NCBI GenBank assembly: GCA_002478275.1
Contig: DLMY01000031.1
Location: 62,001 to 126,000, forward strand
Length of the DNA stretch: 64,000 nucleotides
Origin: Actinobacteria bacterium UBA7524
GTDB taxonomy: Bacteria > Actinomycetota > Coriobacteriia > Anaerosomatales > UBA912
Reading direction: 5' to 3'
Position numbers: made by a program. Each line of letters opens with the position of its first letter. Position 1 is the stretch's first letter. Shown here one piece after another: positions 44,801 to 59,800 of the stretch.

Positions 44801-47800
44801 CACTCGAAGTCGGCGACGAGGCCACGATATCGGCTGCCAGGGGCCGCTTCGTCCTGCCTGAGGGTGTCCGCAGCGCGATCTTCCTCGCAGGTGGCATCGG
44901 GATCACTCCGATGCGAAGCATCCTCCGGGATGCTGTTCAGCGGAAGACCGGGATGAATGCCGTGCTGTTCTTCGGGAACCGGGACGAGACATGCATCCCG
45001 TACCGGGAGGAATTCGACGCGATGGAACCGCAAGGCGTCAAGGTGGTGCACGTCCTGGAGAGACCGCAGGAAGACTGGCCAGGACCCCGCGGTTACATCA
45101 CATCCGATCTCGTTCGCGAGATCGTGGACCCTGCCAAGTGGGAGCTTTTCGTCGTCGCAGGTCCGCCCGTGATGGTCGAGGTGATGCAGCGAATCCTGGA
45201 CGAACTCGAGGTGGATCCCGGTCGTCTGATGGTGGAACGGTTCAGCGGCTACGCGTGACCGATGTCACCGAGGGGTATGAAACGTGCAGAGACCTGGAGG
45301 AGTTCAGGTGTGCGTTCATGCCGGGGATCTGTCGGGACGTGTCGAGCCAGTCGTTGACGAGGGGAGTCAGACATGGAGCTGCTTGCCAGGACGTGTAACA
45401 CCGATCGGATGAACGTGCAGCGCCTGGCGGCCAGGTTGTTCGTGGCCGCGGGTGGGTTGTTCTGGGTCGCTGCCGCATTCGGCGCGAGCTTCTCGTATCA
45501 GGGCAAGAGTCTCGCCGAGAGCGCAGGCACGGCACTCATCCCGCTCGCCATCGCGGTCGTCGCGTTGGCTCTGGGCTGGATGTACGAGGTCCTCACGGCT
45601 GCGCTTCTGTTCGCGGGTACTGCAGGCGTCATCATCTGGGGAGTCACAGGTTCTTGGGAGGCGGGCGTGTGGATGATCAACGCCGCGGTTCTCATCGCGC
45701 CCATGGTATTGGCCGCGATCCTGTTCCTGCTGGCGGCGCGCATGCAGAACATCTGTCAGCTGGAAGAGCACTCGTAGCAGCGCGGAGAGTGCATTTGAGG
45801 CTCGTGCGGGTGGCTCGAGACCAAGAGGTCGGCGAGAACGGCCTACTCGGGCTCGTCAGCTTCCACGAGGGTGATCATGAAGGTCAGCGGTTGTCCAGCC
45901 AGCGGGTGGTTGAAGTCGAGCTTGACCATCTCTTCGCCGACTTCGATCACCGAGGCGGCAAGCTCCTGCTTGTCGGGGCCGATGAGACGTACTACCATGC
46001 CGACCTCCGGGGTCTCCCAGAACTGCGAGAGGGGCACTTCTTGCACCGCCTCATCGATTCGGGGGCCGTACGCTTCTTCTGCGTCGAGAGTGACCATGGC
46101 GCTGCTTCCGACATCCAGGCTGCAGACGGCTTCCTCGAAGCCTGCGATCACCTGCTGTTCGCCCACGGTGAACTCAAGGGGCTCGCGCCCTTCGCTCGAG
46201 TCGAATTCGGTCCCGTCCTCAAGAGTGCCACGGTAGTGGACGCGGACTGTCGTGCCGTGCGGAAGTGCCATAGCGGATCCCTCATCTCTGCCGGTGACTC
46301 GGATGCGATATGCCTCACAACCCTACATCAATCAGCTGAGCTGTCTACTCATACGGGTCGGGAGGTTAGATCATGACCGCTTGTATCGCCGTCCGCGCAA
46401 GAGAAGTACCGTTCAGGACCGAATCGAGCCCGTCGGTCGTGGGTGGCTGGAATTTGTTCGGTCATAAGCTAAACTCTAGGCGCTTCGAATGACGATAATC
46501 ATGCCAGGGGCATCGAGACCCTTGCCTACCGTTGCTTCGGCGGTAGCCCATCAGACACAGGGACGGCACTAGTGTATGACCTCGAAGGGGTTCTCGGACC
46601 CTCGGTCATGGAGTTCGTGGAACGCCACGTCAGGTCTCTACTGACGTGGGACATCCTTGTGTTCTTCCACCGCAACCCGGACGCCGTCCTCGATGTCAAT
46701 GGGCTGGCGTCTCGCTTGGGTCGTCGTATAGAGGAGCTCGAACCGGAGATCGAGGCTCTCTGCGCTGGGCGGATACTCCAGTGTGCCGGGGGGTTGATAC
46801 GCTACAAGCCGACTCCCGAACTACGGGAGACGATCGGTGGGTTTGTCGAGGCATGCCAGGACCGAGGACGCCGGTTGGCGTTGATCGCGCTGGTGTTGCA
46901 CAAGATCAACCCGCAACAACCAGCCTAGAGGTGTTCTGACACCGAGACTGCGAGACTCGCCGGGTCGACCACTTCAACGATAGGCAGATCGTGTTCGGCC
47001 GTGTCGATCTCGTAGGGTTCTTCGAGAGGCAGGCCACCCTGGTCGTAGACGATGCGCACGATCGGCCTCAAGGACTCCTCCCCGGGCCGGCTCACGACGC
47101 CAACGGACTGGTCGGAGAGACGCACCAGGCACCCGACGGGAAACACGCCCATCGCCTTGGCGAACAGTCGCGCGAACATGGGATCGAGAGCCGTGCCCGA
47201 CTCTCTGAGTACCTGGAGTATGGCCTTGTCGGGGGTCATGGCTTCCCGCTCTGCGGTCTCCGTCGTGAGGTTGGTGTAGCGATCGGCTATCGCGACCATC
47301 CTGCTGAATGGGTGTCCCACGTAGTCCCCGGGGTGCTCGGGGAATCCCCCACCGTCCACGTGCATATGGTGTTCGTACGCCACGAGCATGGGCGAGGGGT
47401 CCTCGTCCGAGTGCCTCGCGAGCAACTCGGCGCCGATCTGTGGATGCATCCTTCTCATCGGCTCCGCCTGGGCCGGATCGTCGGTCTTGAAGGCGGCCTT
47501 GCCGATGTCGTGCATCAGCGCCGCGAGACCGAGAGAGGTCAGCCCTTCCTCAGGCAGACCCAGCGCGCTTCCGAGCGTCATCGAGTAGATCATCACGTTG
47601 ATCGAATGGAAGAGATGCGCTTCGTTCATCCCGCGCATGGTCGCAAGGCCGAGCACTGAAGCCTGGTCCTCCAGCATCCGCTGCATGATGTTGTCGACCA
47701 TCTCGCCGGCGGCGGCCGTGTCGGGCCGGCCGCTCTGGGCGATCTGGGCCGACATGGCCTTGAGCACGGCAACGAGTCTGTTGTACAGAGCTCTGTCCTG

Positions 47801-56800: not shown

Positions 56801-59800
56801 TCGCTGAAGCCATGCTGGACCTCGATCCGGCCGTACGGCGGGCGATGCTGACGACACGACTCCTGCCCGAGGCGCGCACCAACGATGCGATGGCCCAGGT
56901 CGTCAGACAGATGGGGGTCGATGAGGTCTGTGCCATCCTGGCCGAAGGCGCTACTGAAGACGAGGCATCGCTGGAGGGCCTGGCCCGGGCGATACGGAAC
57001 CTGACCCTGATCTCGGTCGCCGAGCGCGAGGAAGTGTTCAACGCGGCGGGAGCGGCGATGCTGAGCTCCGGGCTTTCAGAGGGAGCCGTCAACTCAGTGT
57101 TCGAAACCGTTGCGCCAAGCCGTTTGCGGGTGCGCGAACACGGGGGTCACTCGAAGGAGGTGCACGAGGTCGACTCGATATTGCAGCTGGTCGACCTCGC
57201 GCCGGGCTCCGTGTCTCAGGGTTTCGAGGACGACATGGGCTTTGTGACCCTGCAAGAGGAATCCAGGCGAGGCATCACTGACGGCGACGTCGTGGCGGCC
57301 CTGGTCACGTTGGTGACAGTCGACGCCAAGGGCGTGAACTTCGGGTCGATGATGGCCCTTCTCGAGGACAATCTCGAGTTGACCGTCGAGCGCGGTGACT
57401 ACGAAGTGGCTGCAGACGCCGCTGACGCGCTCATGCGGGTCCTCGAGGAGCCCGACCTGCCGGACGTGCGCAACAAGCGGATATCCGCGGCTCTTTCCAG
57501 GCTGGCGGGAGCTCAGGAGATCGGCGAGATCACCACTGCGATGCGTCTGTACCCACCGGACTCTTCCGAGTACGTCGCATGCCGCCGCCTGATAGATGCG
57601 TTAGGCGGAGCGGCGGTCGAGCCGCTGCTCGAGACGTTGGCCGATCAACCGGACATGGCCGCACGTAAAGCACTCGTGGACCTGGTCGCCGGTATGGCCG
57701 ACCAGCACATCGATCAGCTCGGGGAGCATGTCAAAGATTCCAGGTGGTACTTCGTGCGCAACGTGGTGGCCATCCTCGGCAAGACGAAGATGCCCGAAGC
57801 CGTGCCCTATCTCGGCCGCACCCTGCGTCACGGCGATGCCCGGGTCAGGCGCGAGACGATACGAGCGCTGTCGGGGATCCCGGACCGCCTGGCCGATGAG
57901 ATGCTCATCGCCGCCCTCGACGATGCGGACGCCCAGAACGTCCAGCTCGCAGCACGTTACCTGGGCGCATCGCGAGAGCGCGGAGCGGAGGCGGCCCTCA
58001 AGGCCGTGGCCGCCGGAGAGGGAAGAGGTAATCGCGAACTCGGGCCTCGCATCGAGGCGATCGAGGCGCTCGGCAGACTCGGCGCGGTCTCTGCGGCGCC
58101 GATGCTTGAGTCTCTTGCGAGCAAGCGCTCGATCATCGGCGGCGGGCGCACGCGGGAGCTGCGTACCGCAGCCGAACATGCGCTTGCGAAGATCCGCGCG
58201 AAGGGAGGCCAGCAGTGAGCGAAGACGTCCCTCACGACGATCCGCGGCAGACACCCGTCGATGGTCAGGGAATCCAAGAGCCGGCCTCGCAGACCATGGA
58301 AGGGGTTCCGGCGCTGCCCGTGCGGGAGGAGCCGCAAGCCGTCACCGCGTACTCGAGCAAGCAGCTCAAGCGCGTTCGTGACCTGCTCACGCGGCTGTAC
58401 GCGGTCAGGCGCACCGCGCGCTTCTACCCGATGGACCACCCCGCCACCGTCGAGGCGGTCTCAGCGCTCAAAGACGTCGTCGACCGCTACCACCAGGAAG
58501 GAGTCGACGTTCAGCTCGCGTTCTTCGAAGGTGAGCTGATCTTCGGTGATCGCCTCCTTGCCGAGGAAAGCCTGCTGTTCGAGCAACTCGTGCGCGACAT
58601 GACCGCGATCGGTGTCGGAAGCCTCGTGGTCGGCCGTGGCGTCGACCTGAACGAGTTCTCGCGCGCAATCGCCGTGCTCGCTGCAGACTCCTTTGAGGTC
58701 GCTCGCAACGGCGGCATCATGCGGATGATCGCCGAAGCGAACGTGCCCCACATAGAGGTGGGCACGGTCAAGGTCTTCGAGAGAGAAGACGTCGGAGAGC
58801 TCTCGCCGGAAGAGGCCCGCGAGACCTATGACAATGCGCTTGAACTCATGCGCGAGATCGACCTGCTCATCAACCGCAACAAGTCCGTGAACGCCGGGCA
58901 GGTGAAGACCGTAGTGCGGTCGCTCGTCGACAACGTGTTGTCGAATCGCTACGCGATGCTCGAGCTGACGGGCTTGAAGGACTATGACGAGTACACGTTC
59001 TATCACAGTGCCAACGTTGCGATACTCTCGCTCGCGCTTGGATCCGCGGTGACCAACGACTACCGGTTCCTGTCATCGTTGGGTGTCGGCGCTCTGCTGC
59101 ACGACATCGGCAAGATGACCGTAAGCCTCGACATCTTGAACAAGCCCGGCGCGTTGACCGCCGAGGAGTGGGCGCTCGTCAGGCAGCATCCGGTCTACGG
59201 AGCCCAACAGGCCGCGCTCGTTCCCGGGTTGGACAAGTCGGCTGTGGTGACGATCCTCGAGCACCACATGCGCTTCGACGGGAGCGGCTATCCGAACCGG
59301 ACTCCCCGGCGACCGCAGCATCTGGCCTCGCGTATCGTGGCGGTGGCCGACGCGTTCGATGCGATGACCTCAAGGCGATCGTACAGCGCCGCCCGGGTGC
59401 AGGACGAGGCGATGACCTTGCTCGTGCAGAGCGCAGGGACAGCGCTCGACCCGGCCCTCACGCGGTTGTTCGTGAGCATCATGGGAGTCTACCCTCCCAG
59501 GACGGTGGTGCGTCTGGAGGACGGTCGAACGGGTATAGTCATTCGACCGAGTGAGTCGGACCTGACTCGTCCGCTGGTGCGCGTGATCGCGCAGGCCGAC
59601 GGCGAGATGATCGACCCGTTCTCGGTGGACCTGTCCGCTGAGGGACAGCCGGGCATAGCGATGTGCCTGGATGCGGCAGACCTCAACATCGAGGTGGACG
59701 ACTACATCTAGGGGTGATCACCAGATGTCCTCTGTACCCGCTACACGTGGCGGCCGAATCTGGCTTGCCATCGCTCTCGTGGCCTTCGTGGGATTCCCGA

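Follow-up and report, generated by a model that had tools for sequence, protein, structure and literature searches.

Conserved gene pairs encoding HEAT-repeat and HD-GYP proteins with a common, unannotated N-terminal domain

The analysed window, a stretch of 64,000 nucleotides from contig DLMY01000031.1 of Actinobacteria bacterium UBA7524, carries two gene pairs (types A and B) in which a gene for a HEAT-repeat protein is followed on the same strand by a gene for an HD-GYP protein (Table 1). The initial annotation had described three such pairs in this genome, and indeed the four ORFs of the window were recovered at the positions assigned to them, while the third pair (type C) was located on another contig, where the longest ORF begins 33 nt ahead of the start given previously. 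The HEAT_2 proteins of the three pairs comprise 641–720 aa, their HD-GYP partners 438–498 aa. At both junctions in the window, the sequence reads as a 4-nt overlap with the GTG start inside a GTGA, and a Shine–Dalgarno-like element lies 6–7 nt 5′ of the start.

Table 1 Features of the HEAT/HD-GYP pairs. Positions refer to the window unless a contig (C19, the contig of the window, or C21) is named
Feature	Position	Strand	Description
HEAT-A, putative scaffold gene of type A	48238..50238	-	666 aa: N-domain, then alpha-solenoid; ORF and translation
N-domain of HEAT-A	49774..50208	-	LYPPTSP motif; profile A3 match (C19:111774-112208), E 1.1e-55
HD-GYP-A	46925..48241	-	438 aa: N-domain, HD-GYP-like domain, C-terminal beta domain
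N-domain of HD-GYP-A	47837..48241	-	LYPPTHP motif; profile A3 match (C19:109837-110241), E 1.4e-47
Junction A	48238..48254	-	AAGGAGG 48254-48248; GTG start 48241-48239 overlapping TGA stop 48240-48238
HEAT-B	56056..58218	+	720 aa; N-domain 13-145, linker, helical domain 172-352, linker, HEAT solenoid 387-717 (residues)
N-domain of HEAT-B	56080..56517	+	Profile A3 match E 4.2e-56; hhalign columns 13-148
Junction B	58203..58218	+	GGGAGG 58203-58208; GTG start 58215-58217 overlapping TGA stop 58216-58218
HD-GYP-B	58215..59711	+	498 aa; ORF and translation
N-domain of HD-GYP-B	58359..58793	+	FYPMDHP motif; profile A3 match E 3.5e-55; hhalign columns 52-187
HD-GYP domain of HD-GYP-B (predicted catalytic)	58800..59486	+	Residues 196-424
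C-terminal beta-rich domain of HD-GYP-B	59496..59684	+	Residues ~428-490; five strands in AF2 model
Pair C	C21 (piece L001 6293-8218 and 8233-9717)		HEAT, then HD-GYP

All three long proteins scored above the HEAT_2 gathering cut-off (PF13646, 27.7 bits) and adopt an alpha-solenoid fold, as expected of HEAT repeat proteins; the scores were 30.8, 68.9 and 43.3 bits, the lowest arising from residues 531–600 of HEAT-A. They had been described as possessing no other domain, yet each carries, besides the repeats, an N-terminal domain (hereafter N-domain), and half of the positions that are invariant or almost so in the family (16 of 32) fall within the first 140 residues. Phycobilin lyase or NblB identity was dismissed, since the NCBIfam scores of 15.8–19.7 bits stand against equivalog cut-offs of 300–600. 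In contrast to the proteins described here, the PBS-lyase-type HEAT proteins CpcE/F, NblB, YibA and the artificial alphaRep have neither an N-domain nor a tie to cyclic-dinucleotide enzymes. In all three short proteins, Pfam detected HD_5 and HD (42.4 and 37.1 bits for HD-GYP-A; HD_5 82.6 bits for HD-GYP-B), and the HD-superfamily helical core with the HD-GYP-specific extension is present. A C-terminal beta-rich domain is retained in all three as well; matches of the HD-GYP-B model to solved HD-GYP structures (ranks 1–6) stop ahead of it, at residue 423–424. Previously reported identities were reproduced, with 31% over 138 aa between the N-termini of HEAT paralogues (E 9e-19) and 28–33% over the full length of the HD-GYP paralogues A, B and C.

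Profile–profile comparison by hhalign of 100 HEAT-family with 94 HD-GYP-family sequences aligned the N-domains of the two families over 136 columns with a probability of 98.7% (E 4.1e-16). Two AF2 models of high confidence moreover gave the same order of helices and strands, H H E E E H E H H H E, for HEAT-B and HD-GYP-B (pLDDT 90.8 and pTM 0.80 for the latter). A common N-terminal domain in both kinds of protein, proposed earlier, was thus corroborated, and it no longer depends on a single weak BLAST match; a cross-family match between individual sequences reached 25% over 103 aa (E 8e-7). A Y-P motif lies between helices one and two of the domain and reads LYPxxHP in the HD-GYP proteins and LYPxxSxxP in the HEAT proteins. 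No covering sequence match was found in Pfam, NCBIfam or the PDB. A six-sequence N-domain profile matched 7020 protein clusters at E ≤ 1e-3; in the genome under study, which contains 13 HD_5 matches, the domain is confined to six proteins (6 matches), namely those of the three pairs.

Within the order, 144 of 146 genomes carry the N-domain, and by hand count the matches are present and even in number in 128/146. Among 21 relatives, 102 of the 121 N-domain matches form 51 same-strand pairs spaced 1.8–2.4 kb apart. These figures rule out mere chance as the cause of the gene order and support each locus as a conserved two-gene module. At all 34 loci compared, the partners were of cognate type (A-A 11, B-B 11, C-C 12, mixed loci 0), the orthogroup A HEAT protein being found at 11/11 A-type loci, and at 16 of the 34 the longest ORFs overlap by exactly 4 nt. 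A quick N-domain tree (147 columns, midpoint root) separated a HEAT-class and an HD-class half, each with monophyletic A, B and C (SH-aLRT 94–100) and with the loci of a second phylum forming the same two subsets, the deepest split having an SH-aLRT of just 85. Other families of the phylum contain solitary N-HEAT proteins (786–1294 aa) whose genes have no HD-GYP gene in their vicinity. In the second phylum, the N-domain was detected in 71/151 genomes, with at least 44 pairs in 37 genomes among the matches listed; 54 of 150 matches listed were unpaired at the distance criterion used. The loci fetched from this phylum encode N-HEAT followed by N-HD-GYP in 12 of 12 cases, with Pfam in agreement for 5 pairs. 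Given the solitary proteins and the unpaired second-phylum matches, the HEAT protein is not necessarily dependent on an HD-GYP protein. Of the initial proposal that it is an obligate partner, the conserved module with cognate types stands, while strict obligateness finds no support here.

Single-chain architectures were found elsewhere as well, comprising N-N-HEAT, N-x-N-HD and stand-alone N-N, together with the fusions GGDEF-AAA_16-N-N-HEAT and GGDEF-AAA_16-N-HEAT. On account of its fusion to GGDEF cyclases, the N-(N)-HEAT unit gives the impression of a general adaptor serving both c-di-GMP-synthesizing and c-di-GMP-degrading enzymes. The N-domain is a widespread, unannotated alpha/beta domain of ~135 residues that links HD-GYP proteins, GGDEF cyclases and HEAT proteins acting as putative scaffolds. 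Since the genome studied here encodes GGDEF cyclases (8 matches) along with one EAL match, c-di-GMP signalling is plausible in this organism.

We compared the HD-GYP motifs in 13 orthologues per type with those of PmGH (GAF-HD-GYP, PDB 4mcw), the mechanistic reference. The HD dyad (PmGH H221/D222) is kept in types A and B (13/13 each) and replaced by an aligned YD in type C (13/13, the protein of this genome included). Type B displays EHHxRxDxxGYP and type C EHHxRHDxxGYP in all 13 orthologues; type A keeps EHH and D, and its GYP position varies (GFP 8, GWP 2, GYP 1, GSP 1, GVP 1). The other metal ligands (equivalents of H189, H250, H276/H277 and D305) are found in all three proteins of this genome, the D305 equivalent being Asp in 7/13 and Asn in 6/13 type A orthologues. 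Roles as c-di-GMP contacts are ascribed to KPG and RxxK in section 6 of the Galperin & Chou preprint. At these positions, type B has KPG (11/13) and RxYS (13/13), type C has K-x-G (12/13) and RPFR (13/13), and type A shows neither motif in any of the 13 orthologues. HD-GYP-B is accordingly the sole one of the three paralogues with the canonical HD, HHxxxDGxGYP and KPG, bearing RxYS in place of RxxK, while HD-GYP-A retains HD, has GFP for GYP and contains neither KPG nor RxxK. A PmGH-like trinuclear subclass was rejected: the position of PmGH E185 holds Tyr in types B and C (13/13 each), where an acidic residue is absent; in type A the residue is variable and for the most part not acidic. With these differences from PmGH, types A–C were placed in the binuclear class as outlined in the preprint.

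From these motifs, the type B protein is probably an active c-di-GMP phosphodiesterase, and types C (YD for HD, with GYP and RxxR kept) and A likely represent versions with altered chemistry or receptor-like function. According to the excerpted text of PMC4159591, Ala substitutions of GYP, R314 and K317 in PmGH do not greatly lower its activity; the loss of motifs in type A is therefore no proof of inactivity. The earlier designation of the pairs as a c-di-GMP degradation module fits type B; it does not extend to type C with its YD, nor to type A with its degenerate GYP and missing contact motifs.

The designation "PA4108-like" had to be given up, because PA4108 is a DUF3391-HD-GYP protein (preprint, section 10) and no Pfam match to DUF3391 (PF11871) was obtained for any of the six N-domains even at E ≤ 5. 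DUF3391, as described in that section, has its four strands ahead of two long helices, whereas in the N-domain two long helices come first and strands follow; the structural alignment with Bd1817 (PDB 3tm8), of the PA4108 family, covers only residues 189–424 of the HD-GYP-B model. Sections 6, 8 and 10 and further passages of the preprint mention no HEAT partner for this family. PmGH likewise differs in its N-terminal domain and lacks a described partner gene. The c-di-GMP receptor DvhD of Desulfovibrio vulgaris (PAS-HD-GYP, PDB 9rbz/9rc0) was not matched in sequence by the N-domain profile and, in the excerpted text of PMC13090378, is a membrane protein that acts with a protease, with no HEAT partner mentioned. 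A likeness exists to RpfG-type systems, in that HD-GYP proteins, inactive ones included, signal through partners (preprint, section 16), but RpfG has a REC input domain and its partners are not encoded by a conserved, domain-sharing upstream gene. In the literature searched, we found no published description of a HEAT/HD-GYP pair.

Overall, the loci are best explained, with somewhat better than even confidence, as translationally coupled two-gene operons for a two-protein HEAT/HD-GYP signalling module. The upstream protein would act as an alpha-solenoid scaffold and the downstream protein as a cyclic-dinucleotide phosphodiesterase of the HD-GYP type, or else as a receptor-like protein derived from one. 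We infer that the two proteins bind each other: their N-domains may pair in trans, as they would within one chain of the natural tandem N-N proteins, and thereby tether the HD-GYP protein to the solenoid, which could offer a surface where a target or an input binds. Turnover or sensing of c-di-GMP would then take place locally on the scaffold, and an ancestral pair was presumably triplicated as a unit in this organism to give types A, B and C.

Alternatively, the N-domain might just as well serve both proteins as a ligand sensor, recognizing one and the same signal (a small molecule or a protein) in each; co-transcription of the genes would then let that signal control HD-GYP activity and, separately, an output of the HEAT protein, in the absence of stable contact between the two. 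Sensor domains of HD-GYP proteins are usually N-terminal (preprint, sections 8 and 16), conservation within the HEAT proteins is highest in the N-domain, and N-HEAT proteins exist with no HD-GYP neighbour. We nevertheless consider this explanation unlikely: tandem N-N chains and strictly cognate types are expected of interacting paralogous domains, the class-specific motifs YPxxHP and YPxxSxxP speak against an identical ligand site, and the conserved 4-nt overlaps suggest matched output of the two proteins. That the adjacency is fortuitous or purely syntenic, a loose family that happens to lie beside a common enzyme and is functionally unrelated to it, is scarcely credible; HEAT_2 is indeed loose and the type A score low, but a specific domain common to both genes across the order, the second-phylum pairs, the cognate pairing and the fused forms contradict it.

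The nature of the nucleotide also had to be weighed. The pairs might act on another one (3′3′-cGAMP or pGpG), or types A and C might be non-catalytic with the pair serving another process. In the PDB, the sequence of type B is matched best by V-cGAP3, a cGAMP phosphodiesterase (5z7c, E 3e-22), with PmGH behind it (E 4.5e-20), and changes at the Lys of RxxK, which type B lacks, shift some proteins toward cGAMP (preprint, section 6). The contact motifs missing from type A and the YD of type C also fit this explanation, PmGH H221A being inactive (PMC4159591). Conversely, diguanylate cyclases of the GGDEF type occur as fusions with the N-(N)-HEAT unit, GGDEF matches outnumber EAL matches in this genome, an RxxS HD-GYP protein of Streptomyces venezuelae hydrolyses c-di-GMP (personal communication in the preprint), type C retains GYP, K-x-G and RxxR, and the HD-GYP domain of DvhD binds c-di-GMP as a receptor (PMC13090378). 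We thus regard this explanation as quite improbable.

The HEAT/HD-GYP signalling module can be extended into a bolder reading, which we advance tentatively and would not yet favour as a whole. The N-domain would be a new pairing module that docks alpha-solenoid scaffolds onto GGDEF proteins in cis and HD-GYP proteins in trans, giving hard-wired local c-di-GMP signalling complexes in three phyla or more; a large "orphan" HD-GYP subfamily would find in the HEAT protein the obligate partner it has long lacked, and the YD type and the type devoid of substrate-contact motifs would be receptors or regulators of enzymatic ancestry rather than phosphodiesterases.

In many environmental lineages, HD-GYP proteins make up the principal class of predicted c-di-GMP phosphodiesterases. 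Their predominance is illustrated here by 13 HD_5 matches versus a single EAL match. The pair would provide one HD-GYP subfamily with a genetically hard-wired partner, making local c-di-GMP signalling by HD-GYP proteins testable with two proteins. Moreover, the three co-resident variants, canonical, YD and degenerate in the substrate site, form a comparison set for HD-GYP proteins as enzymes versus receptors.

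The HEAT/HD-GYP gene pair is a real, ancient and widespread arrangement, so far undescribed, whose two products carry a new shared domain. Pairs A and B, in which a HEAT gene is followed by an HD-GYP gene, were present in the window exactly at the coordinates assigned by the initial annotation (see table). The assembly that holds them (1.81 Mb, 60 contigs, 83% complete) carries a further pair, C, on contig C21. Pfam placed HEAT_2 above its cut-off in all three long proteins and both HD_5 and HD in all three short ones, and the nearest homologues were MAG proteins labelled Coriobacteriia or Actinomycetota by their sources. 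At the junctions of pairs A and B, the GTG start of the second gene lay inside a GTGA overlapping the TGA stop of the first, with AAGGAGG or GGGAGG 6-7 nt 5' of these downstream starts. The operons appear to be bicistronic, since every pair was flanked by opposite-strand genes or by genes of unrelated function (CNNM/CorC, Maf and UPF0182 around pairs A and B; an IrrE-like gene and a coiled-coil gene around pair C). A scan for promoters and terminators found no promoter-like sites, and terminator-like sites were no commoner than in shuffles.

Positions of the pair genes, of domains in their products and of one locus elsewhere with tandem N-domains
Feature	Position	Strand	Details
HEAT-A	48238-50238	-	666 aa
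HD-GYP-A	46925-48241	-	438 aa; downstream of HEAT-A
HEAT-B	56056-58218	+	720 aa
HD-GYP-B	58215-59711	+	498 aa; downstream of HEAT-B
Pair C (contig C21, fetched as L001)	6293-8218; 8233-9717		641 aa; 494 aa; 14-nt gap
HEAT-B N-domain	residues 13-145		AF2 model
HEAT-B low-confidence linker	residues 152-161		AF2 model
HEAT-B helical domain	residues 172-352		AF2 model
HEAT-B second low-confidence linker	between helical domain and solenoid		AF2 model
HEAT-B HEAT solenoid	residues 387-717		AF2 model
HD-GYP-B N-domain	residues 48-183		AF2 model
HD-GYP-B C-terminal beta-rich domain	residues ~428-490; 59496-59684	+	AF2 model; five strands
Members of locus L139	2704-3705; 3813-5525; 6761-8080

Several features of the surroundings were recorded as well. 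The longest-ORF start of the UPF0182 family gene (59671-62613, + strand, 980 aa, 952 bits) fell within the final 41 nt of HD-GYP-B. Genes for a CNNM/CorC-type transporter, a LiaF-like membrane protein and a PspC-domain protein (49988-53456, + strand) lay between pairs A and B, suggesting an envelope-stress cluster, and pair C was adjoined by three successive genes with triple CW_binding_2 (CWB2) domains (L001 11345-15928, - strand). The G+C content was 0.54-0.61 at window positions 1-10000 and 32001-34000, compared with about 0.62-0.68 in most other parts.

The claim that both kinds of protein share an N-terminal domain was borne out by profile comparison and by structure prediction. The six N-termini of the assembly were colinear over about 140 residues, with an invariant Y-P motif, and a profile-profile comparison of 100 HEAT-family with 94 HD-GYP-family sequences matched HEAT-B 13-148 to HD-GYP-B 52-187 (136 columns, probability 98.7%, E 4.1e-16). 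AF2 models of HD-GYP-B (pLDDT 90.8, pTM 0.80) and HEAT-B (pLDDT 90.3, pTM 0.56) agreed here on the succession of secondary-structure elements, H H E E E H E H H H E. The shared N-domain is thus real. Judged by sequence-family searches it is also new: Pfam gave no match to it even at E<=5, NCBIfam matches left it uncovered, and a profile of the six N-domains yielded nothing credible among PDB sequences (a single spurious match, E 0.4). ESM Atlas matches to the N-domain were unnamed clusters only, with scores of 0.90 or less; the fold searches with HEAT-B and HD-GYP-B covered whole models and were taken up by the solenoid or the HD-GYP part. At the other end of the enzymes, a C-terminal beta-rich domain with a GVYPxGxxVRLxDG-like motif is conserved in HD-GYP-A, -B and -C, and the solved HD-GYP structures matched by the HD-GYP-B model stop short of it, at residue 423-424. 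A string resembling the N-domain motif, RLYPPDS, recurs within the HEAT-B solenoid (residues 495-501; 57538-57558) and is weakly conserved in the family consensus.

Within the assembly, which has 13 HD_5 matches in all, the N-domain was confined to these six proteins. In the order as a whole it was found at E<=1e-10 in 144 of 146 genomes (97 of 98 high-quality ones), and by hand count 128 of the 146 held an even, non-zero number of matches; a genome of the order has at most 4 pairs. Among 21 relatives, 102 of 121 matches formed 51 same-strand pairs spaced 1.8-2.4 kb apart; the 19 unpaired matches lay mostly near contig ends or in the split genes of one genome. Pair-gene copies that were split or carried an in-frame TGA in relative G014 (C1:1145778-1148121 and C1:896215-896641) are likely to be pseudogenes or assembly errors. 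We then sampled 37 pair loci from 13 better-assembled relatives, a set without the pairs of G003, G004, G008, G014 and G015. In three loci one partner fell below thresholds. The other 34 yielded both genes, and in every one of these the partner types (orthogroups A, B and C) were cognate (A-A 11, B-B 11, C-C 12). Longest-ORF junctions showed an overlap of exactly 4 nt in 16 of the 34, and eight further junctions lay between -11 and +21 nt. An apparent read-through fusion of the two genes, the 1156-aa ORF of locus L044, was an artefact of longest-ORF choice in another frame. When 101 N-domains were placed in a quick maximum-likelihood tree, a HEAT-class half separated from an HD-GYP-class half (SH-aLRT 85), and types A, B and C were each monophyletic in both halves (94-100), implying that the N-domain duplication is older than the triplication and that the pair was copied as a unit.

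Beyond the order, a search with a six-sequence profile among 1.84 billion entries picked up 7020 cluster representatives (E<=1e-3), of which 2025 reached E<=1e-10. In the phylum sample the N-domain occurred in 28 of 201 genomes, including the unpublished G108; among these 28 it was found in pairs or else in large proteins that stand alone. From eight loci fetched for their large ORFs, nine N-domain proteins were scanned: seven, of 786-1294 aa, were solitary N-HEAT proteins lacking an HD-GYP gene in their vicinity, one was a GGDEF-AAA_16-N-HEAT protein of 1278 aa, and one (L008) was the HEAT member of a pair, with an HD-GYP following it. Two database proteins of about 1000 aa, P0241 and P0242, had been candidates for a natural HEAT-HD-GYP fusion and proved to be GGDEF-AAA_16-N-N proteins. 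A locus search with P0241 kept 80 loci, of which 79 matched the GGDEF part alone; the only full-length relative among them was encoded at L047, in a Desulfobacteraceae MAG. Sampling the phylum of L047 revealed the N-domain in 71 of 151 genomes. Of the 150 matches tallied there (13 more lay outside the tally), 54 were singles and the rest formed 4 tandems and 44 same-strand pairs, the pairs being spread over 37 genomes. All 12 loci fetched from this phylum encoded an N-HEAT protein (509-783 aa) directly followed by an N-HD-GYP protein (372-542 aa), and Pfam confirmed HEAT_2 and HD_5 in 5/5 pairs scanned. Further architectures were N-N-HEAT, N-x-N-HD, stand-alone N-N proteins of 302-317 aa (on contigs of up to 57 kb) and GGDEF-AAA_16-N-N-HEAT (1344-1400 aa), one member of the last being labelled a Planctomycetota diguanylate cyclase. 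The giant GGDEF-AAA_16-N-(N)-HEAT proteins, 1278-1456 aa (L005:4623-8459, - strand; P0384; P0386; G221:C35; G259:C42; G362:C39), place a STAND-like NTPase between the diguanylate cyclase domain and the N/HEAT unit. For the database protein P0388, the search found no locus in genome contigs and one in metagenome contigs. At a single locus, L139, which we regard as a lead, a stand-alone N-N gene (2704-3705) immediately precedes the gene for a T2SSE ATPase with MshEN, a c-di-GMP-binding domain, and a T2SSF gene is close by.

That the pair had gone unremarked, as the initial annotation held, agreed with our searches of the literature on HD-GYP with HEAT repeats, c-di-GMP and Coriobacteriia, which turned up no such pair by title or abstract among the papers listed; PMC7159879 proved unrelated in the portion of its text covered. 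The Galperin & Chou preprint gives DUF3391, DUF3369 and MASE9-12 as associated domains of HD-GYP, and the word HEAT is absent from its main text; its Table 3 and supplements could list the architecture. The HEAT-paired enzymes belong to the HD-GYP superfamily. Their earlier label "PA4108-like" did not hold, however: their N-domains gave no DUF3391 match, nor any Pfam match even at E<=5, which sets them apart from the Bd1817/PA4108 (DUF3391) family.

Of the models considered, the one with most support is a module of two translationally coupled proteins, whose homologous N-domains are predicted to pair. The HD-GYP protein would thereby be tethered to the solenoid scaffold, the binding itself being putative. 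In favour of this model are the tandem N-N forms, the inheritance of strictly cognate partners together, N-domain trees that mirror each other, the conservation of the overlaps, and the GGDEF cyclases to which N-(N)-HEAT is fused. Its main rival takes the N-domain for a sensor domain common to HEAT and HD-GYP proteins that form no complex. A complex prediction for HD-GYP-B 40-498 with HEAT-B 1-350, from separate alignments and without controls, scored 0.00 with no verdict and weighs neither way on binding.

A second rival is that the HD-GYP substrate is other than c-di-GMP. The catalytic motifs, which we tabulated for 13 orthologues per type, the proteins of the assembly included, differed between the three enzymes, which are thus not equivalent. 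Type B retained HD and GYP in 13/13 and KPG in 11/13, with RxYS at the RxxK position in 13/13. Type C, which showed the strongest conservation among the types (60-76% identity to its counterpart in the assembly), had YD for HD in 13/13, kept GYP, and showed K-x-G in 12/13 and RPFR at RxxK in 13/13. Both types carry Tyr at the position of E185 in PmGH, a known HD-GYP protein, and type A is varied and mostly non-acidic there; by this residue the HEAT-paired enzymes fall outside the trinuclear PmGH class. Type A kept HD (13/13) and the other ligands, with Asn at the D305-equivalent in 6/13; GYP was replaced by GFP (8), GWP (2), GSP (1) or GVP (1) and retained in one, and KPG and RxxK were absent in 13/13. 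In PmGH, H221A abolishes activity and alanine mutants of GYP, R314 and K317 retain much of it, as reported in PMC4159591; the roles assigned to KPG, RxxK and E185 follow the Galperin & Chou preprint (section 6). On these grounds type B is probably a binuclear c-di-GMP phosphodiesterase, and types C and A may be read as altered or receptor-like HD-GYP proteins. An HD-GYP protein acting as c-di-GMP receptor has a precedent in DvhD, as described in PMC13090378.
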